Counted from the stretch's first letter, positions 17,301 through 48,062 are shown. The stretch: 64,000 nucleotides of DNA from an uncultured Bacteroidota bacterium (GCA_964410965.1 CAYPIY010000006.1:135222-199221); one strand, 5' to 3'. A program made the numbers and translations. Notes: generated from the letters alone by a model not told the origin.

Positions 17301-18232
17301 AGGAAATTGTTTTATCGGCCCGAAATGTTGTTGCCCCGCTGCTCAAAAAGAAAAGACAGACCGTTCAGGTTCTGATATCCGACCGCGTACCCGAACTATA
17401 TGTGGATGAGACCAAGATCAAGCAGGTTCTGCTGAACCTTCTGAGCAATGCCAACAAATTCTCTCCCGAAGATGGAAAAATCGTGATTGCCGCCGATGTC
17501 GTGCTTCACGAGGACGGGTCTTGCGATGAACTCGATCTCCGGGTTATCGATAATGGCTGTGGTATACCGGCCGATGAACTGGAACTGGTTTTCCAGGAGT
17601 TCCGTCAGTCTTCGATAAGCCAGTCAGCAAATTACCCGAAAGGTACGGGCTTAGGGCTTACGCTTTCCAGAAAAATCATAGAAATGCACCATGGAAGTCT
17701 CCGGGCCGAGAGCGACGGTATCAGCGGAAGTACATTCATTGTCCGTCTGCCTCTGAAGGAAAAAATCATCAGGGAGAAATTACCCGTCAAATTTCAGACC
17801 CAGAAAAAAACTCCCTCAGTCCTTATTATCGAAGACGATGCCAATGCTCTCAAACTGCTTGAATTTTACCTTGAAGGTCAGGGCTATATGATCATCAAGG
17901 CCATGACAGCCGAAGAAGGCATCCGGCTGGCAAGGGATTTCAAGCCGACGGTTATTACGCTCGATGTAATGCTGCCAGACAAAAGCGGATGGGAAGTACT
18001 TGAAACGCTGAAAACAAACCCTGAGACGATCCATATACCGGTCATTTTAATAACAGCTTTTGAAGACCGCAACCTTGGATACCGGCTGAACGCAAGCCGA
18101 TATTTTGTAAAACCCATTGACCGGCAGGAATTGCTGGAATCCATTTCCAAATTATCTAGAGGAGATGAAGAACTCCGTCCCGTACACAAAGACGAATTTA
18201 TTAAAGAATTAAAAAACATTTCGAACCTATAA
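14324..18232 (+). CDS. Hybrid sensor histidine kinase with periplasmic two-component-regulator-propeller (Reg_prop) repeats + Y_Y_Y domain, TM, coiled coil, HisKA, HATPase_c and C-terminal receiver
   Basis: 1302 aa. Repeated WxGT/WIGT propeller blades. TM helix at ~aa 830. H-box (MSHELRTPLNAI), N/G boxes. Receiver with acceptor Asp (ITLDVMLPDKSGWE). No AraC HTH. Confidence 0.85.
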   Translation: MKYYIQFSIYFGFLILPVLLFSQQKDMPFDRLSLSHGLSQSSVSCIAQDPQGFLWFGTQDGLNRYDGYQFYVFKHDLTDTQTISNNWINTILFDKTGVLWVGTQNGGLNRIDADLQFNLRVTRFRSLTGKTVPDNVMALYEDKNGMIWCGMRSGGLVTIDPQSLKISQIPQTKSFQKNGLEYDLLPDHRIQAIFEDKDGFLWLGSSNQGLMRYDPSKKKYKHYLHDAHSSNSLSHNEVKVINQDHTGIIWIGTLGGGVTLFDPKTERFYPFSSKYHSVNDTKLLFIWSIHRDPQNRMWIGYLSEGLDCIPDVSGKDVINYRNDKSNPRSISDNYVMSVYTDRGGTFWVGTGGGGLNKYNPYNIKFKHYHNQLHTSNSLNNNFVWTISEDHQGLIWIGTKEGLNRFDPGTESFEVYPQKNSKSSLNSAQIWSIMEDQDHHLWVGTGGNGLIRLGRDRGVLKEYQAMQDDHLQTRGSRVSLQKRPNDNFIWCLLEEDPGIIWTGTARGGINVLDVKNELWSYYRHDPSDSSSLGADYVRVMYKDLRGQIWIGTKGGGLNRWIPHRKSFERWVHETNDTGSISHNDVLCIAEDLKGQLWIGTTEGLNLYNQARNSFVRYTTAEGLPDANIYGVLPDASGFLWLSTNKGIIRLDISNSEKENGKIPAERIRLYDVSDGVQQLEFNSGAYLRSHDGNFYFGGINGFNCFKPGEIRNNPYIPPVVLSAFTHQNVHYRNPGKDFFREIRLSHKDRFIAFEFSALDFAAPEKNHYMYQLQGFDKDWIFAGNRRFVNYTNLDPGDYIFRVKGSNSDGLWNKEYLQIPVMISPPFWKTGWFVFLSILLLTGLVFSIYYYQVRSVEKRNMILKQTIAERTSELTDYAKKLEQANEALQQANRQITESNEALVVANRQITIANQMKSKFLANMSHELRTPLNAIIGFSDIILQKTLGGLTNEQEDAVKAVLESGKNLLRLINDILDLSKIEAGKMELNRSDVSLQEIVLSARNVVAPLLKKKRQTVQVLISDRVPELYVDETKIKQVLLNLLSNANKFSPEDGKIVIAADVVLHEDGSCDELDLRVIDNGCGIPADELELVFQEFRQSSISQSANYPKGTGLGLTLSRKIIEMHHGSLRAESDGISGSTFIVRLPLKEKIIREKLPVKFQTQKKTPSVLIIEDDANALKLLEFYLEGQGYMIIKAMTAEEGIRLARDFKPTVITLDVMLPDKSGWEVLETLKTNPETIHIPVILITAFEDRNLGYRLNASRYFVKPIDRQELLESISKLSRGDEELRPVHKDEFIKELKNISNL
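16969..17052 (+). repeat. Imperfect tandem 42-nt repeat inside the kinase coiled-coil linker
   Basis: aatgaggcccttcagcaggcaaaccggcagatcac / aatgaggctcttgtggtcgctaaccggcagatcac, encoding NEALQQANRQITES / NEALVVANRQITIA. Confidence 0.6.
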
Positions 18233-18246
18233 TTGTCCTTAGTAAG

Positions 18247-19542
18247 ATGTACAGTTCTTTGATTTACAGATTGACTTTTCTTATTTGCCTGCTATCCGGT
18301 CCCGCTCTCTCCCAAAACCTGATATACAGGATGACGCTGGATGGGGTTATTAATCCTGCCTCCGCTGAATTCATCCAGTCCGGCATCGAAAAAGCCAACG
18401 CTGACAATGCCCAGTGCCTGGTCATCGAAATGGATACTCCCGGCGGTCTTATGAAATCGATGAACATAATCATAAAATCTATTTTAAGTTCAGACGTGCC
18501 GGTTGTCGTTTATGTATCCCCGTCCGGATCCCATTGCGCCTCGGCGGGAGTTTTCATCATGATGGCTGCGCATATCGCAGCGATGACCCCGGGCACGAAT
18601 ATCGGGGCAGCACATCCGGTCCATCTCGGGGGAGGTGTTCAGGACAGCACATCGAAAGATATGATGGAAAAAGTCACAAATGATGCCGTATCTTTTATAC
18701 GAAGCCTTGCTGAAAAAAACAAGCGGAACGCCGACTGGGCTGAGGACGCTGTCCGAAACAGCGTGTCCGTAACGGAATCAAAAGCCGCTGAACTCCATGT
18801 TATCGATCTGATCGCATGGAATTTTGACAGTCTGCTCATTAAAATTCACCTGAAGCAGGTCGAAACTCTTTCTGGGAAAAAAGTGATTCATACCAGCCAG
18901 CCGGTAGTGGAAATCATCGAGCGGTCCTGGAGACTCGGATTTCTTGATATTCTCAGCGATCCGAACATCGCCTACATACTCATGATGCTCGGTATTTATG
19001 GTTTATTTTTTGAATTGTACAATCCAGGAGCGGTCGTTCCCGGCGTGATCGGCGGAATATGCCTGATTCTGGCTTTTTATTCATTTCAAACCCTGCCCAT
19101 CAATTATGCGGGTTTGGCTCTGATCGTTTTTGCGGTCATTCTCTTTCTGCTCGAAATCAAGGTAACCAGCTATGGGGTATTGTCGATCGGAGGGACGGTT
19201 GCATTGTTGCTGGGATCTGTGATGCTATTTGATTCTGCGGAAGATATGGAAAGATTATCATTCAGCGTCATCATTCCGGTCGTTCTCATCACGCTGTTGT
19301 TTTTCGGTTTGATTGTCGGATACGGCATCAGGGCACAGAAAAGGAAAGTTACGACCGGCAAGGAATCCATGACAGGTAAAACGGGAAAAGCAATGGACTC
19401 ATTCAGACCCGGGGAAACGGGTAAAATATGGGTTCACGGCGAAATATGGAAAGCGGTCTGCGATGAAACTGTTCAAAAAGATGATTCGGTTTTTGTCGTG
19501 GAGATGAAAGATTTTACGTTAATAATCAAAACCAATAAGTAA
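18247..19542 (+). CDS. NfeD-family membrane-bound ClpP-class serine protease (stomatin-operon partner protein type)
   Basis: N-terminal ClpP-like protease domain (LVIEMDTPGG, GSHCASAG), multi-TM middle and C-terminal OB-fold-like domain. Confidence 0.75.
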   Translation: MYSSLIYRLTFLICLLSGPALSQNLIYRMTLDGVINPASAEFIQSGIEKANADNAQCLVIEMDTPGGLMKSMNIIIKSILSSDVPVVVYVSPSGSHCASAGVFIMMAAHIAAMTPGTNIGAAHPVHLGGGVQDSTSKDMMEKVTNDAVSFIRSLAEKNKRNADWAEDAVRNSVSVTESKAAELHVIDLIAWNFDSLLIKIHLKQVETLSGKKVIHTSQPVVEIIERSWRLGFLDILSDPNIAYILMMLGIYGLFFELYNPGAVVPGVIGGICLILAFYSFQTLPINYAGLALIVFAVILFLLEIKVTSYGVLSIGGTVALLLGSVMLFDSAEDMERLSFSVIIPVVLITLLFFGLIVGYGIRAQKRKVTTGKESMTGKTGKAMDSFRPGETGKIWVHGEIWKAVCDETVQKDDSVFVVEMKDFTLIIKTNK

Positions 19543-21720: not shown

Positions 21721-23262
21721 ATGTTTTCACAGGTTCTCAGCGCTACAACATACGGAATTGACGCATACATCGTGAAGGTTGAGGCGCATCTGGATTCCGG
21801 TTTGCCGGCATTTTTCACGGTCGGGCTTCCGGACGGTGCAGTGAAGGAAAGTAAAGAAAGGGTAAATGCCGCAATTAAAAATTCCGGTTATCATTTTAAA
21901 CCCAAACGCATCACGATCAATCTGGCTCCGGCCGATATCAGAAAGGAAGGTTCGGCATTTGACCTGCCGATCGCAGTCGGGATCATTGCGGCTTACGGGC
22001 ATATGAGTCTGGAAAAATTGAAAGATTATATTATGCTCGGCGAACTATCCCTCGACGGTGAAATACGTCCTGTGAACGGGGTGCTTCCGGTGGCCGTAAA
22101 AGCAAGGCAGGAGAGGATCAAAGGCATACTATTACCTGCTGAAAATGCCGGAGAGGCTGCGATGGCCGGTGACATCGAAATCATTCCGGTCCATTCACTG
22201 GAGGAAGCGGTAGCGTTTATCAATCAGGCAAAAATCATCGAACCCCTGACGACAGACCTCCAGTCTCTATTCAGGCAACAAGACATTTATACGGTTGATT
22301 TCAGCGATGTGCGGGGCCAGGAACACGCCAAACGGGCACTTGAGATAGCCGCTGCGGGAGGACATAATATTATCCTGATCGGGCCGCCAGGCAGCGGAAA
22401 AACCATGCTCGCGAAGCGGATCCCGACCATTCTTCCGAATCTGACAATCGATGAGGCCCTCGAAACGACGAAAATACATTCCGTTGCCGGCGTATTGCCG
22501 CCGAATCAGCCGCTGGTCACATCGCGTCCCTTCAGGTCTCCCCATCACACCATTTCGGACGCCGGCCTTATAGGCGGAGGACATGTGCCGAAACCTGGTG
22601 AAGTAAGTCTGGCACACGGAGGCGTCCTGTTTTTGGATGAACTCCCTGAATTCAGAAAGAATGTACTGGAGGTTCTTCGGCAGCCTCTGGAGGACGGATA
22701 TGTGACGATCAGCCGTTCGGAAATTTCACTGACTTATCCCGCCAACTTCATGCTGGCATGTGCCATGAATCCTTGTCCCTGCGGGTATCACGGTGACTCC
22801 CATCATTTATGTTCGTGTTCCCAGCAGGTGATTCAACGGTATATGTCAAAAATATCGGGTCCTCTTCTGGACCGCATCGATATTCATATCGAATGCCCGG
22901 CAATCAAATACAAAGAACTCGCAGGAGAGGGATCGGGAGAAAGTTCTCAGATTATTCGTGAACGGATCATCGCAGCGCGAAGTATACAGCAAAGCAGATT
23001 CAAAGCTGTTCAACAGAAAGGATTGCGGCTTTACTGCAACGCAGATATGCAGACACGGCAGATCCGGCAATTCTGCAAAATTGACCATGATGGATCCGAA
23101 CTGATGAAAATGGCGATAACAAGGCTGGGACTATCCGCGCGTGCATATGACCGGATCTTGAAAGTAGCTCGAACGATTGCTGACTGCAGCCATTCCGAAA
23201 ATATTCTTCCCGAACACCTCAGTGAAGCAATTCAGTACCGAAGTCTGGACAGAAGCCTATGA
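21721..23262 (+). CDS. comM: YifB/ComM-family Mg-chelatase-like AAA+ ATPase
   Basis: N-terminal Lon-protease-like domain, then Walker A (GPPGSGKT), then a C-terminal Mg-chelatase subunit ChlI-like region. Confidence 0.85.
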
Positions 23263-26537: not shown

Positions 26538-27695
26538 TCAGAACCTCAATATTGCCCCGACATTACCCATCATTTTAAAGCGGGAGTTCTCCGCGATGTT
26601 CTCGATTTTACAACCGGTTTTGTATGCGTATGTTACCGCATCTTCGAGAATATCTCTTACCGGGATAATGGCGGCTGAACATACCGGGCAACGGTTTGAG
26701 TAGTCTTTTTCTTCATTGGTTCCCAGAAAATTACAGGTTTTGCATTTAATTCCGGGAGACTGAAAATTCCTTGTGACAATCAGCGTGTCAACACCTCCCC
26801 GGCGCAGGGAATGAAGTGTCGGTTGTAATCCGAAAATGCCCTTGCCTGATTTGGTATGTGTTTCGCTCTTTAATCGGGCAATCAAATCCAGTTCAAGTTT
26901 TTCCAGAGCCAGCCGTGCGATTTCGTCGGATTTTCTGAGCACTTCCGGTAAAGGCGCATCGGGTTCAGCCACAATATGTCCGATCAGTTTCTTGTGCATA
27001 TCAAAGGGCATAAGGGGCTGAAAGTGCCTGATTAACTGCTGCCGTCCTCCCAGGATAATCCAGTTAAAAGGTTTGGAATCAAAAAGCGTCTTTGATTCAT
27101 GCACGACATGCCGGAAATGTTTCATGACCATTTCCTCGTGCGCCCTGTCGATATTTCTTTCCTTAACACCATCCTGTCCTCCGAATTTAATTTTCGGCTG
27201 GACATCGTCGTCGAAAGTCATATAGGGATTTGCGAATCCAAGAGTGACATCAAATATCTTTGCTTTCTTGCTGTCGACCAGAATGATCATATAGCGACGG
27301 TATTGGGATACCAGATCACTCAGGGGCCGGATGTAGGTATCAAAATCACAACTCAGGTAATCATGTACCGGTTGCGGCAATTCGATGGTTTCCCAAAGAT
27401 TCAGCGGACCGCATGTGAAAACGGCTAATCCCTTTGAAATATCCTTATGGATGAATTCCTTATTTACATAATGTTCAATTTTGTCCATGTCTTTATCCAG
27501 TGCATCTTTTTGCCTGTGAGTGAAGGAGGGCTTATGGTCATCGTGCTGATTCCGTTTAGCTTTCAGCAAATCTTTCAAATTAAGCTTGTAATCGGAGCGA
27601 TGCTGGGCCCGGTCAATATTGAGATACAAACTGGTAATAAAATGTTCCTTATTCCCGATTTTGGCCAAAGCCTCAATGCGTTTGTGATCTAACAT
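26538..27695 (-). CDS. Bacterial eRF1/Pelota-like protein (baeRF1-type) with GGQ motif and C-terminal CxxC…CxxC zinc ribbon
   Basis: Central-domain GGQ (KIKFGGQDGVKER). C-terminal domain blocks match the eRF1/Pelota/Dom34 C-domain (GKGIFGLQPTLHSLRRGGVDTLIVTRNF; terminal MGNVGAILRF versus eRF1 …GGIGGILRY). A Zn-ribbon (CKTCNF…CPVCS) is inserted. Confidence 0.55.
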   Translation of the reverse strand: MLDHKRIEALAKIGNKEHFITSLYLNIDRAQHRSDYKLNLKDLLKAKRNQHDDHKPSFTHRQKDALDKDMDKIEHYVNKEFIHKDISKGLAVFTCGPLNLWETIELPQPVHDYLSCDFDTYIRPLSDLVSQYRRYMIILVDSKKAKIFDVTLGFANPYMTFDDDVQPKIKFGGQDGVKERNIDRAHEEMVMKHFRHVVHESKTLFDSKPFNWIILGGRQQLIRHFQPLMPFDMHKKLIGHIVAEPDAPLPEVLRKSDEIARLALEKLELDLIARLKSETHTKSGKGIFGLQPTLHSLRRGGVDTLIVTRNFQSPGIKCKTCNFLGTNEEKDYSNRCPVCSAAIIPVRDILEDAVTYAYKTGCKIENIAENSRFKMMGNVGAILRF

Positions 27696-27749
27696 GTCAA
27701 CCTCCTGTTCAAATGAATAATGGAAATACGCAAATTCAACAGGCTCATG

Positions 27750-28715
27750 TCATCCGTGATGTCTGTAACCATGGTATGAATTTCTCCTTTTAAGCTCATG
27801 GCTTACAAGACGGATCATTTCCGAGCCTTTAATATGCCACTTGGGGGCGAGTGTTACCTGAGGATCTGATTCCCCGCAAAGGCGTTCGATAAGGATCGAA
27901 GGTGACAGCCGCTCAAGGAAATCGGCCGTCAGCTGTATGTACTCTTCCAGATCGAATACCGGAAAAAGGTTTTCTCTGTACAGGTTTGCGAGAGGCGTGT
28001 TTTCAACAATGTGCAGGTGATGCAGTTTGATTCTTTGGATGGGTAAGCGGGACAGAATTGCAGCAGATTCCAGCATTTCCAAGCGTGTCTCGGTTGGAAA
28101 ACCAAGAATCAGATGCAGGCATATTTCGACCGGATACAATGAAGTTTCATTCACGGTTTGCTCCAGTTGACCGAATGTATGACCGCGGCGGATCCATTTC
28201 AGGGTTTTGTCGTAAACCGATTCACAACCGTATTCGACCGATATGTAACCTTTCCCGGCCAGTCGCCCCAATAATTCCAGTTTATCGTGGTCAACACAGT
28301 CCGGACGGGTACCTATGGAGATACCTATGATATCAGGATGATTCAGCGCTTCTGTGTAAACTGTTTCTAGCCTGTCAACAGGCGCGTCTGTATTCGTGAA
28401 TGGCTGAAAATAGGCTATAAACCGTTGTGTTTTATAACGCCGCTTATAAAAAGTTATTGCGGCATTCAACTGTTCGGTCACGGTTAATTTTTGATCGCGG
28501 AACCTGTAAGCCGGACTAAATACCTCGTTATTGCAGTAAATACAGCCTCCGGTTCCCAGCCTTCCGTCCCTGTTTGGGCATGAAAACCCGGCATCGATCG
28601 TTACTTTCTGAATTCTCCCGCTGAAGCGTTTTTTTGTATAAGCGTGATAGGTTTCGATAAATTGGTCCGGGCCGTGAACGATGTTTGTTTTGGAAGTTGA
28701 CGGTGATTGAATCAT
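27750..28715 (-). CDS. Radical SAM protein, YhcC/TIGR01212 family (Elp3-like radical-SAM domain)
   Basis: Non-canonical cluster motif CPNRDGRLGTGGCIYC (Cx11Cx2C) characteristic of the YhcC family. 321 aa. Confidence 0.65.
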   Translation of the reverse strand: MIQSPSTSKTNIVHGPDQFIETYHAYTKKRFSGRIQKVTIDAGFSCPNRDGRLGTGGCIYCNNEVFSPAYRFRDQKLTVTEQLNAAITFYKRRYKTQRFIAYFQPFTNTDAPVDRLETVYTEALNHPDIIGISIGTRPDCVDHDKLELLGRLAGKGYISVEYGCESVYDKTLKWIRRGHTFGQLEQTVNETSLYPVEICLHLILGFPTETRLEMLESAAILSRLPIQRIKLHHLHIVENTPLANLYRENLFPVFDLEEYIQLTADFLERLSPSILIERLCGESDPQVTLAPKWHIKGSEMIRLVSHELKRRNSYHGYRHHG

Positions 28716-28961: not shown

Positions 28962-29720
28962 ATGATGATTGGGAATTACAGAATCCTGAAAGTTCTTGGC
29001 GAGGGGGGATTTGGAAGAACATATCTAGCCGAGCATGCGTTAATCAAAAAACCGGTTGTGATCAAGCAATCACTGTATAAAGGCACTGACGCACAGGCTA
29101 TCACGCTGAATGAAGCGTCGCTTTTATGGGACGTGAATCACTGGGCATTACCTACCGTTAAGGATGTTCTTACGGATGATGAAAACAATCTTTTGATGGT
29201 TATGAGTTACATTCAGGGAGAAGAACTGTACAAATATGTCCGTTCGAAAGGTTCTCTTGACCCGGAAACCGTTTGCTGGATTACGCAACGCATTCTGAGC
29301 GGACTCTATTATCTCCATTTTAACGGGATTGTACACAGGGATGTCAAGCCTTCCAACATCATCGTTCATTTCAGGACGCATATCGCAACCCTCGTTGATT
29401 TTGGATTGTCAAAACTCAGACCTGATGGAAATCCAGATCCATGCGGTTACACGCCTTATTTTGGGGCGCCGGAACAGATTCAGGGAAAGCCTGCGATACC
29501 GGAAAGCGATATTTACAGCCTGGGTGTAACATTGATATATCTTCTCGGAGGCGATATTCAGTCCAAAACCCTTCCATCAAACATTCCGGATCAGTTGAAA
29601 GATTTCATTTTCAGGTTATTGCCGGCTAATCCGCTTCAAAGACCGAAGGATTGTAATTTGCTGAATCAGGAAATCACCACGGTCCGGGAAAAATTATTTA
29701 ACCGCAAACATACGATGTAA
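28962..29720 (+). CDS. Minimal Hanks-type Ser/Thr protein kinase (catalytic domain only)
   Basis: Gly-rich loop LGEGGFGRTY, VIK lysine, HRDVKPSNI catalytic loop, DFGLSK, APE. 252 aa with no sensor or TM domain. Confidence 0.85.
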   Translation: MMIGNYRILKVLGEGGFGRTYLAEHALIKKPVVIKQSLYKGTDAQAITLNEASLLWDVNHWALPTVKDVLTDDENNLLMVMSYIQGEELYKYVRSKGSLDPETVCWITQRILSGLYYLHFNGIVHRDVKPSNIIVHFRTHIATLVDFGLSKLRPDGNPDPCGYTPYFGAPEQIQGKPAIPESDIYSLGVTLIYLLGGDIQSKTLPSNIPDQLKDFIFRLLPANPLQRPKDCNLLNQEITTVREKLFNRKHTM

Positions 29721-29730
29721 GGGAGAAAAT

Positions 29731-30696
29731 ATGCCTTATTCTTGGGATGACCAGCATGATTTCAATACGCAATCTTCGCAGGGATATTCTTTTCAAGATG
29801 CCAGGAAATCGTATGCCGATGTAGCCGTGGCCAGGACATCCGGAAAGGCGTATTATACGTTCAGGAGCCCGTTACCCGAAACGGAAGCGCATTATCCGGT
29901 GATCATCGGTATCGATACAACGGGTTCCATGGAGAAATGGCCTGAAATTTTCTTTGATAAGCTGCCTCTGCTGTATAAGGAAGCCGTCAGATATTTTCCG
30001 GAATGCGAGATCAGTTTTCAGGCAATCAATGATTATCACGCGGACGGAGCCGAAGTAGCTCTCCAGCCAGCGCCTTTCGGAAAAGGGCCTCAGCTCGATG
30101 AACTGATCGGCCAGCTTTATCCGGCAGGTGGGGGCGGGGGACAGGGAAAAGAAAGCTATGAAATCTTTGCAGCGTATAATTCCTTTCTCAAAGCTCCCAA
30201 AGCGATTATTAAACCGGTCGCAGTCATTCTTGGTGATGAAATGACATGGGAAACCGTTCCAGCTGAGGTTTGCAGTGCTTTGGGTTGGAAAGAAACCGTC
30301 ACAGCGGAAACCGCTTTTTCAAGGCTTGCGCAGGTTTGCGATGTATTTCTTGTCCGTAAGCCCTATCATGGTTTTGGCGATCCGGATTTACCGATTGTAA
30401 AAAACTGGATTACCGTCGCCGGCATCCCTGAGGAACGAGTCATGAATATTAAAGACCCAAGGCGGGTAGTGGACGTGATACTGGGGATCCTGGGAATCCT
30501 GACGGGTAAAGCCGAACTGTTCGAAAAAGAACTGATCGACAGACAGGATCAGAATCAGGTGCAAGAGGTTCTGCAGTCTTTGCAGTCTTTAAAAGCTTCG
30601 TACCAAGTGCAGACTCATGTTTCACAGCAAGCAGTCTCTCTCAACCATGGTTTATCCAAACAGTTAAAAACCAAACGACTGGATACAGATGAATAA
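29731..30696 (+). CDS. vWA (von Willebrand factor A, MIDAS-containing) domain protein with Q-rich coiled-coil tail
   Basis: beta1-MIDAS VIIGIDTTGSM, GGGGQGKES loop, beta4 AVILGDE. C-terminal Q/L-rich segment. Confidence 0.6.
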   Translation: MPYSWDDQHDFNTQSSQGYSFQDARKSYADVAVARTSGKAYYTFRSPLPETEAHYPVIIGIDTTGSMEKWPEIFFDKLPLLYKEAVRYFPECEISFQAINDYHADGAEVALQPAPFGKGPQLDELIGQLYPAGGGGGQGKESYEIFAAYNSFLKAPKAIIKPVAVILGDEMTWETVPAEVCSALGWKETVTAETAFSRLAQVCDVFLVRKPYHGFGDPDLPIVKNWITVAGIPEERVMNIKDPRRVVDVILGILGILTGKAELFEKELIDRQDQNQVQEVLQSLQSLKASYQVQTHVSQQAVSLNHGLSKQLKTKRLDTDE

Positions 30697-31594
30697 TGCG
30701 GATGTAATTGTTACACAGGGGCCGTATTCGTCCTTTCTGGATGAAGTCGTAAGGGAGGATATTGTTCAGGGCGTCAGGCTGAATACCGTCATGCCCATCA
30801 AAGAAGGGGAAATAAGGCGGAAATTAAAGGAACTACATGAGCGCATATATCCTAAAACCCTATGGATCGATCTGAAAGCCCGTCAGTTAAGGGTGACTGA
30901 TTTCGCCAATACGCCCTATACAGCCGTATCCATTTCGCATAAAATCCATGTCAATCTTCCGGCGATAGTCTACTTCGATAACGGGAACATCACGGCAAAG
31001 CTTGTGGAAATCGACGGTACCCGCCTGATCCTTGAAGATTATGCCGGGCGGCTGATCGGACCCGGAGAATCCGTGAATATCATTGATCCTTCTTTGAAAT
31101 ACCTAGAACCGTCATTTCTGACTGAAAGAGACAAGGGATTTGTTGATGTCAGCCGCGATCTGCATATCGGCCATTTCATGCTATCCTTTGCTGAATCAGC
31201 CGCTGACGTCGAATTTCTCAAAAAATTATATCCGGATTGTGTGGTGATGGCCAAAATTGAAAGCAAAAAAGGAATGGATTCTCTGGAGTCTATTGCTGGT
31301 TCCTGCGGATGGATCATGGCCGCTCGCGGCGATCTGTATACTGAACTTGATTATCCCCATGAAATCGGCCCGGCTTTAAAACGTATCGTAAGTGTTGCCG
31401 GAGAAAAAGCGGTTGCAGCTTCGAGGATGTTCAACTCATTATTGAAGCATCCGGTTCCGTCCTGTCCGGATATGATGGATTTATTGTTTCTAAAGGATAT
31501 GCAATACAGACACTTTATGATTGGCGATGATATCTGCTTCAGGAAAGAAATGCTATTTCAGGCATTGCGGATCATGAAAGCAATTTTCAGATAA
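30689..31594 (+). CDS. Truncated pyruvate-kinase-like protein (PK A+B domains only, no C-terminal regulatory domain, divergent K+/substrate-site residues)
   Basis: Collinear PK blocks: IVTQGPYS (cf. IVCTIGPAS), RLNTVMP (cf. RLNFSHG), WIDLKARQLR (cf. LLDTKGPEIR), MAKIESKKG (cf. IAKIENQEG), MAARGDLY (cf. MVARGDLG), AASRMFNSL (cf. ATQMLESM). Only 301 aa. Confidence 0.6.
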   Translation: MNNADVIVTQGPYSSFLDEVVREDIVQGVRLNTVMPIKEGEIRRKLKELHERIYPKTLWIDLKARQLRVTDFANTPYTAVSISHKIHVNLPAIVYFDNGNITAKLVEIDGTRLILEDYAGRLIGPGESVNIIDPSLKYLEPSFLTERDKGFVDVSRDLHIGHFMLSFAESAADVEFLKKLYPDCVVMAKIESKKGMDSLESIAGSCGWIMAARGDLYTELDYPHEIGPALKRIVSVAGEKAVAASRMFNSLLKHPVPSCPDMMDLLFLKDMQYRHFMIGDDICFRKEMLFQALRIMKAIFR

Positions 31595-31625: not shown

Positions 31626-32375
31626 ATGGAAATCCGGTTATTACTTCCGTTTCTTGTTTTTATTATAATATTCATTTTGGCCAGCACTATCAAGATTCTG
31701 CGCGAATACGAGCGCGGAGTTATTTTCCGGCTTGGGCGCCTGATTCAGGTAAAAGGTCCCGGGCTCATTATCCTGATTCCGGTTGTGGATAAGCTTGTAA
31801 AAGTGAGTCTGCGTACGGTGGTGATGGATGTACCTCCCCAGGATGTGATCACGCGCGACAACGTATCTGTACAGGTGAATGCCGTTATTTATTTCAGGGT
31901 CATTCTGCCGGATAAAGCCATCGTCGAGGTAGAAAATTACATCAGCGCGACATCGCAGCTTTCACAGACTACATTACGGAGCATCCTTGGTCAGTTCGAG
32001 CTGGATGATTTGCTTGCAGAAAGGGAAAAAATCAACAAACAACTGCAGGAAATCATCGACAGTCAGACTGAACCCTGGGGAATAAAGGTAAGCGCCGTTG
32101 AAGTCAAGCATATTGACCTCCCTCAGGAAATGAAACGTGCAATGGCCAAACAGGCCGAGGCCGAAAGGGAAAGGCGGGCTAAAGTCATCGCTGCGGACGG
32201 GGAATTGCAGGCGTCCTACAAGCTTACCGAGGCATCCGAAATTATCAGCCGATCGCCGGCGGCTCTTCAGCTTCGCTATCTGCAAACCCTGGCCGAAATT
32301 GCGACCGAGAATAACTCCACTACGATTTTTCCGATTCCGATCGATTTTTTGAAAGCGTTTATGGAGAGAAAATAA
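31626..32375 (+). CDS. SPFH/band-7 (stomatin-like) membrane-microdomain protein
   Basis: N-terminal TM followed by the SPFH core ([14 protein letters not shown]…[34 protein letters not shown]) and a coiled-coil tail. AAAGGAG RBS. Confidence 0.85.
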
Positions 32376-32387
32376 TCATCTCTTGAC

Positions 32388-32777
32388 TTATTGTTGAGGT
32401 TCAAGTACTGATTGAACCAGTGTCTTGAATTTTTGAGTATCAAATGGTTTGCTGACGTACATATCGCATCCAGAATTGATGATTTTTTCCTCGTCACCCT
32501 TCATAGCATGCGCGGTTAAAGCGATGATGGGAATAGCTTTTGTCCGATTGTCGTTTTTCAATCTACGGGCTACCTCATAGCCGTCAATTTTCGGAATCTG
32601 AATATCCAGGACAATGAGATCTGGAATATGGGATTCGGCGAGAGTCAGCGCCTCTTCTCCGTTAACAGCCTCAATAAAACAATAATTGTCATTTTTCAGA
32701 GTCAGTTTGATCAGTCGCATGTTGACCGGATTATCTTCCACTAATAAAATCTTTTTCGGCATGCGGGATTCCTTCAT
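32388..32777 (-). CDS. Stand-alone response-regulator receiver (CheY-like) protein
   Basis: 129 aa. Acceptor Asp block LIVLDIQIPKIDGYE. No output domain. Confidence 0.8.
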   Translation of the reverse strand: MKESRMPKKILLVEDNPVNMRLIKLTLKNDNYCFIEAVNGEEALTLAESHIPDLIVLDIQIPKIDGYEVARRLKNDNRTKAIPIIALTAHAMKGDEEKIINSGCDMYVSKPFDTQKFKTLVQSVLEPQQ

Positions 32778-35700
32778 TTAATTTATTAATCTTCTGATTT
32801 CAACTGCCAGATCCTCGGGCTGATAAGAAGTTTTTTCGATCAGGCCCTGTATCTTTCCCTCCAGCGTCTGTGTGTCCTTTTTTGTCAGGTTTGCGGCGGT
32901 TAGAATTACTATCGGCAGATGCTGGGTATTGGGATTCTGCTTAATCTGTTCGATCACCTCGACTCCGTTCATGCCCGGCATCAGCAGATCAAGCAGAACA
33001 ACGTCCGGCATGACTGATTTGAGCAATTCGAGTGCTTCCGGCCCGCTGGATGCTTTATAAACGGTGAATCCCTGTCTTTCAAGAAGGGTCCCGGTTACCA
33101 TAAGAAATCCTTTATCATCGTCCACGATTAGGATATTTCTGATCTCTTTCGTGAAAGTGCCAAGTTCGGATAATTCCTTGATTCTGGAGAGCAGTTTATC
33201 TCGTTCCACGGGCTTGACAAAATAATCATGAGCATGAATCCTGAAAACATGGTCATCATCAGTGGCTGATACGATGAGGACGGGGATATTGGCTGTCTGA
33301 GGATCAGACTTCAGTTCCTGCAGCACCTGCCATCCGTTGATTCCCGGCAGCATGATGTCTAGGGTGATCACCATAGGCTGTATGCGCTTGGCCTCGGAAA
33401 CTACATATTCACCCAGGTGGACGACGTGAACCTCATAGCCTTCCGTTTCCATAAATTTCTTCAAGAATCCCGCAGAAATGGAGTCATCTTCGACCACAAG
33501 CACTCGCTTGCTGCGGGATGTTCCATGGGCGGCCTGGTGTATTCCGTTTGCGCCTTCGATAGTAAATGAGGTTTCCACAGGAATGCGGAAATAAAAACGG
33601 CTTCCTTTTCCCGGTTCACTTGTGACCCGGATATTTCCTCCCTGAAGTTCGACCAGATGACGGCATAGTGCCAGCCCCAGTCCTGTGCCTGAATCTTCCC
33701 GGGTATGACTTCCGTCGGCCTGGCGGAACTCGTCAAAGATGATGTTCAGATGTTCGGGATTGATTCCCTTGCCGTGATCGGTAACGCTGATCTGAATCCA
33801 GCGGAAAGGATCTTCAGAAACGATTTCAGCATCAATCTCGATTGCGCTTTGCGGCGGCGAATACTTGCTTGCGTTACTGATAAGATTGCTGAGGATCTGC
33901 TTGAATTTTTTAATGTCCGCATGAACCATCGGAAAATTCTCAGGTATCCGTGCGACGATTCTTTGTTCTTTGTTCCTCAGCACAGAAGCCAATCCTCGTT
34001 CAACGGATGATATGATATCGGCAAGAAGGAAATCTTCCATGAAAAGGTCCATTTTTCCCGCCTGGATCTTCGACAGGTCCAGGATATCGTTAATAATGTT
34101 CAGCAGGTGTTTTCCGCTGGCGTGAATATCCTCCAGGCAATCCTCCTGATCGCTATTAAGGTTTCCGAGTACTTTGTCCAACAGCAACTCAGAGAATCCG
34201 ATGACTGCATTGAGAGGAGTCCGGAGTTCATGACTGATATTGGACAGAAACTGCGATTTCAGCCGGTCCGTTTCCAGGATACGCTCGTTCAATTCGCGGA
34301 GCTGACGGGTGCGGTCATCGACTTTTCGTTCAAGGGTCGAATACCATTTGATGTTCTGCAATGCCACGGAGGCACGGCTGGTAAGAGCCGAGCATAATTT
34401 CAGATCGTCCGGACTGATCGCGTGGGAGGATTTTGAGGATTCAATAACGAGCGCACCGGTGATATAATCCTCTTCCGTAAAGAAGGTAACGACAGAGGAG
34501 AGGGTACGCAATGGATATGCGTGTTGCAGTTTAGTGAACTGATCCAGGCTGTCGGGCCGGTCTTTGCTGAATAAAATGCCATGATTCTGCAGAATCGCCC
34601 ACCCGATGTGTGTTTCTTCCACAGACCGGATCACATCCGGGAGACGCTCTGAAGGTATCCCTCGCTGAAAGGGTATGGTCCATTTACCGGAGGAAGTGTT
34701 CCTGAAAAGCAAGTAACCCCGGTCAGCCGCAGGAATCCCATGAAGTGCAGAAGTCAGGCATTCCAGAAGAATCTCATCCTGATGGCGAAGGTTGATGATT
34801 CTTGAATTGAACTGGTACAGGATTTCAAGTTCAGTGGTATGCTTCCGGATCGATTCAAGAAGATTGGCATTTTCAATAAGCATGGCGGCTTGGGAAGCAA
34901 ACAGGCTGAGCAGGCGAAGGTCATCATCTTTAAAAGCGTTCGTAAATGAAAAATTTTCAAGTGAAATAGTTCCGATCAGCTTATTCTGGTATTTGAGGAT
35001 GGTGGTGATCGCCGATTTGATTTCCGCGTCTGTAGAATGCTCTGTATCCGTCAGGAATCGTTTTGCGTCTGGATGAAGCATATCGGGGACGACAAGATCC
35101 CTTTGTTCCTGGAACGCAATTCCGGAATAACCCTTACCCACTGGAAGCGAGAAATGACTGATATATTCGTCCGTATATCCATGTTGCGCCAGGACTTCAA
35201 GTTTCTGGTTTTTGGCGTTATAAAGAAGTAAGGATCCTTTTTCCGCATTTGGAACCGCCTGAATGGCATAATCGATGATCATCTGCATCAGGGGTTTGGT
35301 TTCATGAGTCGACATCAGATGAGTACTCAGACGGTAAAGGTTCTCAAATTTATGGATGCGGTGTCGGATCATTTCTTCCAACTGTCCGTTTTCGCATTCG
35401 GTTGCCCATTGTCCGGCAATCAACTGCAGAATCCGGGAATCCTTCTCGGTAAGACTTGACTGGGCTCCGGACTGCAGGGCGGTGACTCCGATTATTTTTC
35501 CGCTGGCTCTGATCGGTACGCCGACAAACGGTTTGGTGAACAACTGCTTGGCGCAGAATGTTGCGGACAGAGACCATCTTTTGCAGTCACTGATAATCTG
35601 ATTGGACAATAAAGGGGTTTGTTCATAAAAAATTTTTTTTGCCACATCATCGAGAACAATGATATCGGAAGTCTGAATGTCCTGTCCCATTTTATATTCA

Positions 35701-35822
35701 AGCTCGAGTGTAAAACGATCGGATTGGTCGTCATACAACAGTATCCAGCACTGATCAACCTGGAAAAATTCCTGAATGCGTTCCAGCAATTTTACGGCAT
35801 ATATGGAAAAATGTGAGGGCAT
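32778..35822 (-). CDS. Cytoplasmic hybrid sensor histidine kinase with tandem GAF domains, HisKA, HATPase_c and two C-terminal receiver domains
   Basis: 1014 aa. H-box ISHELRTPLNAVIGFSELL, G-boxes (GTGLGL). Two receiver modules (VLVVEDD…ITLDIMLPGINGW and ILIVDDD…VLLDLLMPGMNGVE). No TM. Confidence 0.85.
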   Translation of the reverse strand: MPSHFSIYAVKLLERIQEFFQVDQCWILLYDDQSDRFTLELEYKMGQDIQTSDIIVLDDVAKKIFYEQTPLLSNQIISDCKRWSLSATFCAKQLFTKPFVGVPIRASGKIIGVTALQSGAQSSLTEKDSRILQLIAGQWATECENGQLEEMIRHRIHKFENLYRLSTHLMSTHETKPLMQMIIDYAIQAVPNAEKGSLLLYNAKNQKLEVLAQHGYTDEYISHFSLPVGKGYSGIAFQEQRDLVVPDMLHPDAKRFLTDTEHSTDAEIKSAITTILKYQNKLIGTISLENFSFTNAFKDDDLRLLSLFASQAAMLIENANLLESIRKHTTELEILYQFNSRIINLRHQDEILLECLTSALHGIPAADRGYLLFRNTSSGKWTIPFQRGIPSERLPDVIRSVEETHIGWAILQNHGILFSKDRPDSLDQFTKLQHAYPLRTLSSVVTFFTEEDYITGALVIESSKSSHAISPDDLKLCSALTSRASVALQNIKWYSTLERKVDDRTRQLRELNERILETDRLKSQFLSNISHELRTPLNAVIGFSELLLDKVLGNLNSDQEDCLEDIHASGKHLLNIINDILDLSKIQAGKMDLFMEDFLLADIISSVERGLASVLRNKEQRIVARIPENFPMVHADIKKFKQILSNLISNASKYSPPQSAIEIDAEIVSEDPFRWIQISVTDHGKGINPEHLNIIFDEFRQADGSHTREDSGTGLGLALCRHLVELQGGNIRVTSEPGKGSRFYFRIPVETSFTIEGANGIHQAAHGTSRSKRVLVVEDDSISAGFLKKFMETEGYEVHVVHLGEYVVSEAKRIQPMVITLDIMLPGINGWQVLQELKSDPQTANIPVLIVSATDDDHVFRIHAHDYFVKPVERDKLLSRIKELSELGTFTKEIRNILIVDDDKGFLMVTGTLLERQGFTVYKASSGPEALELLKSVMPDVVLLDLLMPGMNGVEVIEQIKQNPNTQHLPIVILTAANLTKKDTQTLEGKIQGLIEKTSYQPEDLAVEIRRLIN

Positions 35823-36014: not shown

Positions 36015-37379
36015 ATGACAATGAATCGCATTGAGTTAGATTACAGCAATATCGTTGATTTCATCGATGAAAATGAATTGTTTGCTTATCAGTCCCGTGT
36101 GGATTTGCTGCATAAAAAGCTTCATGATAAGTCGGGAGCTGGAAATGAATTTTTAGGATGGCTTGACCTCCCGGACCGGATCAGGGAGGATGAAATCAGC
36201 CGTATTCAGTCTGTGGCCGACGATGTGCGGAAATCTGCCGAAGCGTTTGTGGTTGTCGGAATCGGCGGATCCTATCTAGGGGCACGGGCCGTCATCGAGG
36301 CATTGTCACACAGTTTCAGCGCTCAAATGGGTATAAAGCCTGTGGTGTATTATGCCGGACAAAACATGAGCGGAAAATATTTAAGCGATCTACTGGAAGT
36401 AATAAGAAAAAAAAACTGCGTTGTGAATGTGATATCCAAATCCGGAACAACCACTGAACCGGCGTTGGCTTTGCGCCTGATCGGGCAGGAACTGATCAAA
36501 AGAAACGGAGCTGCGAGCCTCAAAAAAACCATGATCGCCACGACCGATGTTTCGAAAGGATCACTGCGGAAGATGGCGGATGCGGCTGGCTTGACTACTT
36601 TCGTGATTCCCGATGATGTTGGCGGTCGGTTTTCTGTATTGACGCCGGTCGGACTTCTCCCGATTGCCGCAGCCGGGATTTCGGTACGGGATTTGTTACG
36701 GGGTGCGAAGGACATGTCGGATATGCTTCAGGAAAAAGATCTTGGTAAAAACCCGGCTTATATGTACGCTGTGATCCGCCAGGCACTTTATCAAAGCGGT
36801 AAAGCCATCGAGATACTTTCCAATTTCGAACCCGGGCTGCATTACATGTCCGAATGGTGGAAACAATTATACGGCGAAAGCGAGGGAAAACAGCACAGGG
36901 CGCTTTTTACCGCCTCCGTTGATTTTTCAACCGATCTTCATTCGATGGGCCAGTGGATCCAGGACGGCGTGCGGAACATATTTGAGACGTTTCTGATGGT
37001 CAAAAAGCATCCTTCTGAAGTTGCGGTACCCGGGCTTGACACGGATTACGACGGATTCAATTTTCTTGCCGGTCAGACATTTGACGCAGTCAATGAGCGG
37101 GCGTATGAAGGCGTGAGACTTGCGCACAGGGAAGGGGGCGTGCCAAACATGACCTTAACCTTGCCTGAACTGAACGCGTACTTTCTCGGACAACTTATTT
37201 ACTTTTTTGAAAAAGCCTGCGCAATCAGCGGATATTTGCTGGACATCAATCCGTTTGATCAGCCTGGTGTAGAACAGTATAAAACGAATATGTTCGCGCT
37301 GCTTGGCAAAAAAGGCTACGAGGAAAAAACAAAATCCATAAAATCCACACTCGCAAAAACTGAGACAAAAAAAATATAA
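36015..37379 (+). CDS. pgi: Glucose-6-phosphate isomerase (short, ~450-aa bacterial type)
   Basis: SIS-domain motifs (VVVGIGGSYLG, ISKSGTTTE) and catalytic region (GESEGK-like). Confidence 0.85.
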   Translation: MTMNRIELDYSNIVDFIDENELFAYQSRVDLLHKKLHDKSGAGNEFLGWLDLPDRIREDEISRIQSVADDVRKSAEAFVVVGIGGSYLGARAVIEALSHSFSAQMGIKPVVYYAGQNMSGKYLSDLLEVIRKKNCVVNVISKSGTTTEPALALRLIGQELIKRNGAASLKKTMIATTDVSKGSLRKMADAAGLTTFVIPDDVGGRFSVLTPVGLLPIAAAGISVRDLLRGAKDMSDMLQEKDLGKNPAYMYAVIRQALYQSGKAIEILSNFEPGLHYMSEWWKQLYGESEGKQHRALFTASVDFSTDLHSMGQWIQDGVRNIFETFLMVKKHPSEVAVPGLDTDYDGFNFLAGQTFDAVNERAYEGVRLAHREGGVPNMTLTLPELNAYFLGQLIYFFEKACAISGYLLDINPFDQPGVEQYKTNMFALLGKKGYEEKTKSIKSTLAKTETKKI

Positions 37380-47858: not shown

Positions 47859-47933
47859 GGGCGCTTAGCTCAGCTGGTTTAGAGCGCATGCCTTACAAGC
47901 ATGAGGTCCTTGGTTCGATCCCATGAGCGCCCA
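47859..47933 (+). tRNA. tRNA-Val (anticodon TAC)
   Basis: Cloverleaf: acceptor gggcgct/agcgccc, D-arm tagctcagctggtttagagc, anticodon stem-loop catgc-cttacaa-gcatg, T-arm ggttcgatcc. CCA not encoded. Confidence 0.9.
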
Positions 47934-47988
47934 CAAATAAAAATAACTTGCTTTTCTAAAATAATATGATATATTCTAAGTCTCATAT

Positions 47989-48062
47989 GGGCGTGTAGTT
48001 CAATTGGTTAGAGCACTGCCCTGTCACGGCAGAAGTTGCGAGTTCGAGCCTCGTCACGCCCG
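47989..48062 (+). tRNA. tRNA-Asp (anticodon GTC)
   Basis: Acceptor gggcgtg/cacgccc, anticodon stem-loop ctgcc-ctgtcac-ggcag, T-arm gagttcgagcctc. CCA not encoded. Confidence 0.9.

Follow-up and report, generated by a model that had tools for sequence, protein, structure and literature searches.

Pyruvate kinase (PK; EC 2.7.1.40; PF00224 and PF02887; TIGR01064) consists of a TIM-barrel A domain, a B lid inserted after the third strand, and a C domain that serves effector binding and tetramer formation. The C-terminal barrels of PTS enzyme I and PPDK belong to the same phosphoenolpyruvate (PEP)/pyruvate-binding TIM-barrel superfamily (SCOP) and can phosphorylate a protein partner from PEP. Here we describe a gene in a 64,000-nucleotide stretch of DNA from an uncultured Bacteroidota bacterium (GCA_964410965.1 CAYPIY010000006.1:135222-199221; hereafter the window) that lies at 30689..31594 on the + strand and encodes a 301-residue PK-like enzyme, PKL, with a PK A barrel and a shortened B lid but without the C domain. 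It closes a three-gene cassette that begins with a Hanks-type Ser/Thr protein kinase and continues with protein X, a predicted von Willebrand factor A (vWA) protein. PKL is probably a repurposed phosphotransfer enzyme rather than a glycolytic PK, because the C domain is lost family-wide, the equivalog scores fall below cutoff, residues on the nucleotide side are substituted, the protein is almost always paired with a vWA partner and its genomic contexts are not glycolytic. A first-pass annotation of the window had come to the same conclusion, which is probably right, although the reasons that it drew from the K+ and PEP sites are insufficient. The rabbit-muscle PK numbers given below for PKL residues follow what we take to be the standard numbering.

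The K+-independent PKs, namely the Lys117 clade and the crenarchaeal enzymes, share with PKL Leu113 and, at position 120, a branched aliphatic residue (PMC4284704, PMC8835810, PMC4374775), and the Pyrobaculum PK has likewise lost Ser76 (PMC4374775). Unlike PKL, these proteins are demonstrated PKs that keep the C domain and carry lysine (serine in crenarchaea) at position 117 and glutamine at 114, where PKL has Gln117 and Lys114. The TerY-P triad, formed by a vWA protein, a Ser/Thr kinase with a zinc ribbon and a PP2C phosphatase, resembles the cassette in its three genes, in combining a vWA domain bearing a metal ion-dependent adhesion site (MIDAS) with a Hanks-type kinase and in its recurring zinc ribbon, and it too is mobile and often found near restriction systems (PMC11090510). 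The cassette departs from this arrangement in that its third gene encodes a PK fold instead of a PP2C, the zinc ribbon sits on the vWA protein and only where the kinase is missing, and a sister clade resides in NAD operons; no PP2C phosphatase was found in the cassette or the relatives examined, and X has no TerY-P match in PADLOC. In its NAD-linked form, the X-PKL pair keeps company with a PncA-like protein, a NadM-type nicotinamide mononucleotide adenylyltransferase (NMNAT), a Nudix protein, NadE and NAD kinase, a set that recalls the Preiss-Handler pathway (PncA, PncB, NadD/NadM, NadE) and the NadM-Nudix/NadV islands. By functional analogy only, the pair would occupy the position expected in NAD clusters for a phosphoribosyltransferase or for the supply of phosphoribosyl pyrophosphate (PRPP). 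PKL and X differ from the enzymes of that pathway in lacking homology to type II phosphoribosyltransferases (PncB, NadC, NadV) and to PRPP synthetase, and neither matches the Pfam or NCBIfam models of the NAPRTase/QRPTase families.

The PKL open reading frame (ORF) is as first described, with an ATG start and, in the window translation, an intact chain of 301 residues on the + strand that ends in ...LRIMKAIFR. The start of PKL and the stop of the X gene before it share 8 nt (ATGAATAA), and PKL is translationally coupled with X. The protein matches PF00224 with an E value of 8.6e-15 and 55.1 bits, above the gathering threshold of 30; in a PDB sequence search the significant matches are all pyruvate kinases (best 1.6e-11), and hhalign aligns residues 89-280 with E. 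coli PykF at a probability of 98.8%. PTS enzyme I and PPDK give no sequence match, the only Pfam hit being that to PK, and PKL differs from them in retaining the PK-specific B lid and catalytic lysine. Structure prediction, which the first-pass annotation had suggested as a check, returned a confident PK barrel: the AlphaFold2 (AF2) monomer model, built on 23 family members, has a mean predicted local distance difference test score (pLDDT) of 92.8 and a predicted TM-score (pTM) of 0.90, and a Foldseek search of the PDB with it gave PKs for all of the best 50 matches (E ~5e-20; query TM-score, TMq, 0.70-0.79). The modeled barrel is closed and has eight strands, and the B lid is a beta-rich insertion of ~70 residues after strand 3 (about 67-135), ~25-30 residues shorter than its PykF counterpart in the alignment.

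In the model nothing follows the last barrel helix (residues 286-300); the C domain is therefore genuinely missing, and a Pfam scan of PKL found no match to the C-terminal alpha/beta domain PF02887; the earlier observation that the protein ends right after the A domain thus stands. Against the pyruvate-kinase equivalog TIGR01064, PKL scores 72 bits where 306.4 are required, and against NF004491 75 bits where 432 are required, so that its scores reach at most a quarter of the cutoffs of the NCBIfam pyruvate-kinase models. By its barrel domain and its predicted fold, PKL is a member of the PK superfamily, and by sequence comparison four features set it apart from pyruvate kinase proper: the missing C domain, the altered cation site, the altered nucleotide contacts and the low equivalog score.

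We audited the active site residue by residue with HMMER, hhalign, pairwise and MAFFT alignments to PykF and with a 23-sequence family alignment; PykF residue numbers derive from these alignments, and invariant or fixed refers to the 23 core-family sequences aligned. The invariant residues number 53, and all the PK catalytic residues of the PEP/Mg2+ side are among them. This half-site is intact in PKL and comprises R30 (rabbit R72), K189 and E191 (K269 and E271), G214-D215 (G294/D295) and S245, which takes the place of T327. The catalytic lysine and the Mg2+-binding glutamate belong to an invariant KIE motif (31253..31261, +) that aligns with PykF K220/E222, and the Mg2+-binding aspartate D215, equivalent to PykF D246, lies with the oxo-acid-binding loop in the segment AARGDLYTE (31319..31345, +), which aligns with PykF VARGDLGVE and is invariant as A-A-R-(G)-D-L..E; both motifs had been correctly read as persisting. 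In the segment ASR (31418..31426, +), which HMMER and hhalign align with PK ATQ, the proton-donor threonine is replaced by the equally hydroxyl-bearing Ser245 and the neighboring glutamine (PykF Q279, rabbit Q328) by Arg246, a new arginine beside the proton donor; both residues are invariant. The further phosphate-site residues N32 (N74), D61 (D112), K63 (K114) and R68 (R119) are also kept, so that PKL shares with PK the Arg, Asn, Asp, Lys and Arg of the first two motifs.

The remaining positions of those two motifs have changed. RLNTVMP (30776..30796, +), the counterpart of PK RLNFSHG, has R30, N32, T33, M35 and P36 invariant; Arg and Asn are retained, whereas Ser is replaced by Val (PykF S36, rabbit S76, to V34), His by Met (PykF H37, rabbit H77, to M35) and Gly by Pro (rabbit G78 to P36), all three fixed. 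WIDLKARQLRV (30863..30895, +), the counterpart of PK DTKGPEIRT, has W59, D61, L62, K63, Q66, L67 and R68 invariant. Here D, K and R are retained, Thr has become Leu (PykF T67, rabbit T113, to L62, fixed), rabbit P116 a nearly invariant R65 and Glu a fixed Gln (PykF E71, rabbit E117, to Q66), neither the Glu of K+-dependent enzymes nor the Lys that substitutes for K+, and Val occupies position 120. The first-pass annotation was therefore correct about the replacement of Ser in NFSHG and of Thr in DTKGPE; its statement that the Asn of NFSHG is replaced does not hold, since N32 is invariant, nor is the PEP-phosphate contact lost, as R30 is invariant too. In the B lid, GPGESVN (31058..31078, +) aligns without gaps, by both HMMER and hhalign, with PykF GENKGVN; G124 to N130 are invariant or nearly so in the core family, and the lysine (PykF K156, rabbit K206) is replaced by a fixed glutamate, E127. 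PykF S312 (rabbit S361) corresponds to a fixed glycine, G279. The replacements by M35, Q66, E127, R246 and G279 come in addition to those named in the first-pass annotation.

Among the ADP/ATP contacts R119, K206 and H77, whose roles we take from PK structures, only the first is kept in PKL, as R68, while E127 and M35 replace the other two. In the rabbit PK-ATP-oxalate structure of Larsen et al. 1998, Lys206 reportedly contacts the transferred phosphate. As for the monovalent-cation site, from the ligand list N74, S76, D112, the T113 carbonyl and E117 or Lys117 (PMC4374775), PKL retains N32 and D61 and has V34 and Q66 for S76 and E117. The changes at this site prove little on their own, because K+ is held by the backbone carbonyl of Thr113 rather than by its side chain (PMC4374775) and because genuine PKs that work without K+ normally bear Leu113 along with a branched residue at 120 (PMC4284704, PMC8835810); the crenarchaeal enzymes, which lack Ser76 and Glu117, are PKs all the same (PMC4374775). 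The more telling signs of repurposing suggested by the alignments are the changes on the nucleotide or acceptor side (K156 to E, H37 to M, S312 to G), with the PEP/Mg2+ side untouched.

PKL belongs to a widespread family. A word-indexed search recovered, from many phyla, full-length homologs of ~300 residues with identities as low as 45%, which several sources name pyruvate kinase, and an exhaustive profile search gave 164 clusters (50% identity) at E<=1e-30 as against 3835 at E<=1e-10. The 150 clusters listed are mostly ~280-350 residues long, besides truncated entries and a few longer ones; overlong "PKL" ORFs were artefacts of crude gene calling. Scanning one genome per species yielded 302 PKL loci, the best 80 of which all lie in metagenome-assembled genomes (MAGs), mostly of Chloroflexota, and a metagenome scan with the single PKL protein yielded 10 loci; since most loci are MAG contigs, their taxonomic labels are possibly unreliable. 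In a neighbor-joining tree, a lineage with a QueC-like fusion and a phage sequence are basal, and a clade of mobile cassettes, to which the window belongs, is sister to a clade of NAD operons. The nearest cassette to that of the window, at 66-70% identity, is in a Bacteroidota MAG. The comparison indicates a distinct conserved family and not a fragment. Because the ORF is real, intact and conserved, PKL is not a pseudogene, and the possibility of a pseudogene fragment, which had been named as a potential refutation, is itself refuted by the intact ORF, the length kept across the family, the 53 invariant columns and the confident barrel model.

A search of 2.9 million IMG/VR contigs found no PKL relatives and one of BFVD nothing meaningful, which rules out PKL as a typical phage gene; the only convincing phage match is to one 485-kb phage, other weak phage matches being ordinary PK-like ones and plasmid matches being ordinary pyk genes at 25-29% identity. 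Literature queries on PK-like proteins with vWA and kinase, on NAD with PK-like proteins and on anti-phage systems with pyruvate kinase returned no description of the PKL family or the triad, and neither a paper on vWA conflict systems (PMC7159879) nor a survey of NAD/ADP-ribose genes in viruses (PMC9503650) mentions a PK-like component. The NARP3 system consists of PnuC and NadR and is unrelated to PKL.

Protein X (29731..30696, +; 321 residues) is the near-constant partner of PKL. By tblastn across 99 loci, X lies directly upstream of PKL in 82 of the 84 loci with enough flank, comprising 68/68 distant-clade and 14/16 close-clade loci (the exceptions are loci L003 and L093). X scores below cutoff against all Pfam models and has no match in NCBIfam or PADLOC; the AF2 monomer model (pLDDT 82) has its Foldseek matches in the PDB among the vWA domains of integrin beta-I, von Willebrand factor (vWF-A, vWF-A3), TFIIH p44 and NorD. 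Alignments of both clades reveal the invariant motifs D62-x-T64-G-S66-M, GGGG..E141-S-Y and G168-D169, the first of which is the MIDAS motif DTTGSM (29914..29931, +). The middle threonine of the MIDAS pattern (DxSxS ... T ... D) is replaced by E-S-Y, making the site a variant MIDAS, and from sequence and model together X is assigned a vWA fold with such a variant site. Its N-terminal motif M(P)YSWDD (29731..29751, +), in which both clades keep M1, Y3 and W5 without exception and S4 and D6 almost always, is disordered in the AF2 model, as is the Ser/Thr/Lys-rich C-terminal tail (HVSQQAVSLNHGLSKQLKTKRLDTDE; 30616..30693, +), a candidate site of kinase docking or phosphorylation. In two archaeal-labeled MAGs (L089, 4929-5819, and L021) an extra 296-residue protein, c25, stands between X and PKL; it belongs to no Pfam or NCBIfam family, bears a weak likeness (E 0.005) to the collagen VI vWA repeats and may be a second vWA subunit.

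The first cassette gene (28962..29720, +) encodes a Hanks-type Ser/Thr protein kinase of 252 residues that consists of the kinase domain only (Pfam Pkinase, E 7e-42). All the kinase motifs are in place, with GEGGFG at residue 13, VIK at 33, HRD at 125, DFG at 146 and APE at 169, and the best PADLOC and NCBIfam matches are the defense kinases mad6, PD-T4-6 and PglW. An orthologous kinase adjoins X and PKL in 12/13 close-clade loci, in three low-GC loci (L080, L089 and L097) and in the huge phage. Its presence coincides with a particular form of X: all 15 kinase-adjacent X proteins carry a Ser/Thr/Lys-rich tail and no zinc ribbon, whereas 43 of the 45 kinase-less X proteins end in a CxxC..CxxC ribbon. 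Because tail and ribbon are mutually exclusive, the C terminus of X appears to be the place where an accessory regulatory module acts, and we infer that the tail is a docking site or a target of the kinase.

In the sister clade the genes follow the order NMNAT-X-PKL-NadE on one strand. An NMNAT gene lies no more than 3 kb away in 53 of 55 loci, and for NadE the count is 52 of 61. The NMNAT is of the NadM type and matches the CTP_transf_like and archaeal NMNAT models with E values of 1e-19 to 1e-26, below their cutoffs. Three low-GC loci have a kinase as well. One of these reads PncA-like, NadE, NUDIX, NMNAT, kinase, X, c25, PKL and NADK (NAD kinase) (L089); a second PncA-like, radical SAM protein, NadE, NUDIX, NMNAT, kinase, X, PKL and NADK-like (L097); and the third NMNAT, kinase, X and PKL (L080). 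The PncA-like, Nudix and NAD kinase neighbors thus occur in two of the three, one an archaeon MAG and the other a metagenome contig, the PncA and NADK assignments being weak, sub-threshold matches. In a further locus, L082, the order is X, PKL and NadE with NMNAT and kinase 4.4 kb away; an apparent NMNAT-kinase fusion there was an over-extended ORF call in GC-rich DNA. Judged by gene order, the link of X-PKL with NAD genes persists through rearrangement, and the clusters of L089 and L097 appear to hold every Preiss-Handler step except the conversion of nicotinate to nicotinate mononucleotide (PncB) or the PRPP supply.

The clade of the window, defined by PKL at least 48% identical, has a different setting. 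Its cassette runs kinase-X-PKL (X-PKL-kinase in L007) and stays whole among unrelated flanks in at least 12 loci from several phyla; two syntenic genomes with flanking lipopolysaccharide and fatty-acid genes diverge right beside it. On this comparison the three genes move together as a mobile unit between unrelated genomes. One cassette is flanked by type I restriction-modification genes, another lies near methyltransferase- and BrnT-like ORFs (identified by eye only), and an insertion sequence element or transposase adjoins one more. In an Eremiobacterota MAG (L001:4564-4925), a 63-residue ORF with no Pfam match and a HicA-toxin gene are inserted between kinase and X. Directly 3' of the cassette in one MAG (L101:9117-10211) is a gene for a protein with NERD and FHA domains; FHA binds phospho-Thr, and this protein could read the cassette kinase. 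Searched against PADLOC-DB v2, only the kinase of the cassette matches (mad6, PD-T4-6), X and PKL giving none, and a known anti-phage defense system is thereby ruled out.

The triad is also present in the 485-kb uncultured phage LR745208.1 (L105:7690-16051), where X and PKL come after a DnaJ-kinase fusion. At 1.5 kb downstream of this triad there is a Thg1-like gene and beyond it an ADP-ribosylglycohydrolase, and a D12 adenine methyltransferase lies upstream. Thg1 recurs at L008:4241-7701, where its first base directly follows the PKL stop codon and the surroundings are phage-like and include a T4-type RNA ligase, and at L003:6001-8003 a PKL without X overlaps the gene for tRNA-guanine transglycosylase (TGT) by 4 nt. 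These two loci give a hint of a connection with the metabolism of tRNA or 7-deazaguanine. In one divergent lineage the PKL domain is fused to a QueC-like PP-loop domain, a member of the ATP-pyrophosphatase superfamily to which NadE belongs. That locus (L106:4358-7023, on a GCA_964457955.1 contig of GC 32%) has an X homolog and then the 568-residue PKL-QueC-like fusion, with an SGGLDS motif and a C-terminal Cys cluster; NrdD, a thymidylate-synthase-like gene, an AAA_28 kinase and Dcd flank it in a nucleotide-metabolism island that may be viral. The associations with Thg1, TGT and QueC point to a broader connection with the metabolism of nucleotides or tRNA.

Several readings of PKL can be weighed against these data. 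That the gene is a decayed remnant, either a truncated pyk pseudogene or a non-catalytic scaffold, might be supposed from its being shorter than any canonical PK and from its several active-site substitutions; it is effectively refuted by an intact ORF of ~300 residues in 302 species-representative loci and 164 clusters at 50% identity, by 53 invariant residues, by the confident eight-stranded barrel and by the translational coupling. A minimal but genuine PK, in which a K+-independent, allosterically unregulated A+B enzyme makes ATP from PEP and ADP as a local supply and is controlled by the vWA protein and the kinase in place of the C domain, would be in keeping with the complete set of PEP/Mg2+ residues and the three phosphate-binding residues R30, K63 and R68, with the public annotation as pyruvate kinase and with neighbors that nearly all consume ATP (NMNAT, NadE, QueC-like, Thg1, RNA ligase). 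Such an enzyme strikes us as clearly improbable. Every characterized PK that we know of has a C domain, and in the core family the reported phosphate contact, Lys206, is a fixed acidic residue. Adenine- and ribose-side residues have changed (H77 to M, S361 to G), position 117 is Gln where K+-dependent enzymes have Glu and others a Lys that substitutes for K+, and the scores lie far below the equivalog cutoffs. NMNAT and NadE moreover release pyrophosphate and AMP, not ADP, so a PK would not directly regenerate their ATP. Leu113 and Val120 do form the K+-independent signature (PMC4284704, PMC8835810) and remain in favor of a minimal PK.

A TerY-P-like signaling or conflict module is possible, though on balance unlikely. 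In such a module the kinase and vWA protein would sense an insult, for example phage infection, and PKL would be the effector or phospho-donor, whether by draining PEP, by making a toxic or signaling metabolite or by phosphorylating the vWA protein from PEP in the manner of PTS enzyme I; in the huge phage it could act in counter-defense. Its appeal lies in the self-contained cassette among unrelated flanks in at least 12 loci of several phyla, in a kinase best matched by defense kinases and in neighbors that include type I restriction-modification, an inserted HicA, NERD-FHA, a transposase and, in the window, baeRF_family10, besides the methyltransferase- and BrnT-like ORFs seen by eye. TerY-P-like modules have been reported as stand-alone defense systems with a zinc ribbon on the kinase (PMC11090510), and here a ribbon alternates with the kinase; the phage triad, for its part, lies near an ADP-ribosylglycohydrolase. 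This is offset by the failure of X and PKL to match any PADLOC model, by the missing PP2C and an X that is not a TerY-family sequence, and by the negative searches of IMG/VR (2.9 million contigs) and BFVD, which show that PKL is not a common phage gene. Many cassette flanks, too, are plain housekeeping, the window is not a clear defense island, and the larger sister clade sits without the kinase in housekeeping-looking NAD operons.

We favor, at a probability of roughly 45%, a reading in which PKL is a PEP-dependent phosphotransferase with an acceptor other than ADP that acts together with X under regulation by the kinase, the likeliest arena being pyridine-nucleotide salvage. PKL would be a catalytically competent offshoot of the PK family that has lost its allosteric C domain and would transfer a phosphoryl group, via PEP or an enolpyruvate intermediate, to that other acceptor. 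It would form a complex with X, which would stand in for the C domain as an oligomerization or regulatory partner, and the kinase would regulate the complex via the Ser/Thr-rich tail of X, where kinase-less relatives have the zinc ribbon. Because the NAD clusters are complete but for the PncB/PRPP step, we propose that the X-PKL pair could supply the missing phosphorylated ribosyl or nicotinate intermediate used by the adenylyltransferase. Candidate reactions are a PEP-driven nicotinate-riboside kinase, a kinase converting ribose-1,5-bisphosphate to PRPP, or an energy coupling for phosphoribosyl transfer. In its most specific form, which is doubtful, X and PKL would be a PEP-driven non-orthologous replacement of the PncB step or of the PRPP supply, widespread in Chloroflexota and low-GC archaeal MAGs. 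The pair would also have been captured with the kinase as a mobile cassette, with which various bacteria and a huge phage would restore or safeguard their NAD pools in conflict.

A number of observations weigh against the favored reading. The clade of the window lacks adjacent NAD genes (by tblastn, NMNAT in 0/13 and NadE in 0/15 loci), and none were found in the 64-kb window, so the NAD role is an extrapolation from relatives sharing 45% identity in PKL and 30% in X. Since the sister-clade loci are mostly in Chloroflexota MAGs, part of their synteny could be inherited and not selected. The Thg1 and TGT neighbors and the QueC-like fusion in its deoxynucleotide island have no obvious fit with NAD. 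The glutamate at the K156 position is not universal, being Asp in the phage homolog and Thr in the QueC-fused one, and we know of no precedent for a vWA domain in a metabolic step.

No canonical pyk was found in the 64 kb of the window, Rfam detects only two tRNAs, and a scan for promoters and terminators gave nothing decisive. A Band 7/SPFH gene (31626-32375, +) starts 31 nt downstream of PKL; as it adjoins the cassette in no other locus, it is not part of the system, and NfeD, the usual operon partner of Band 7, lies 12 kb away (18247-19542, +). Divergently upstream of the cassette are baeRF_family10 (bacterial eRF1-like) and a radical SAM protein with Radical_SAM_C (26538-28715, -), which are not conserved beside it elsewhere, and just downstream on the opposite strand is a 1014-residue hybrid sensor kinase with GAF and receiver domains (32388-35822, -) beside a single-domain response regulator. 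The window also holds a large hybrid sensor kinase with Reg_prop/Y_Y_Y (14324-18232, +), typical of Bacteroidota, and a peptidase S46, which give it a Bacteroidota-like appearance, as well as the ordinary-looking genes for a ComM-like Mg-chelatase-family ATPase (21721-23262, +), phosphoglucose isomerase (36015-37379, +) and two adjacent tRNAs (47859-48062, +).

What is new here is a PK-fold enzyme with a predicted new acceptor site and a new vWA partner, and there is a real chance that it represents an undescribed salvage step or conflict module. PKL would be a clear case of enzyme repurposing, in which the PEP half-site is kept, the acceptor half-site is changed and the regulatory domain is swapped for a separate vWA partner, and the alternation of kinase and zinc ribbon on the tail of X provides a concrete, testable regulatory hypothesis. 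Hundreds of genomes annotate PKL as pyruvate kinase; if it is not one, models of central metabolism for many MAGs of uncultured Chloroflexota, archaea and other groups err at a key step of ATP production. The operons that it occupies point to an absent step of NAD salvage, and PKL may be an undescribed step in nucleotide or cofactor salvage. Conflict between phages and bacteria is fought to a large extent over NAD pools, and a new PEP-driven route borne by a mobile cassette and by a huge phage would, if true, matter to the study of defense and counter-defense.

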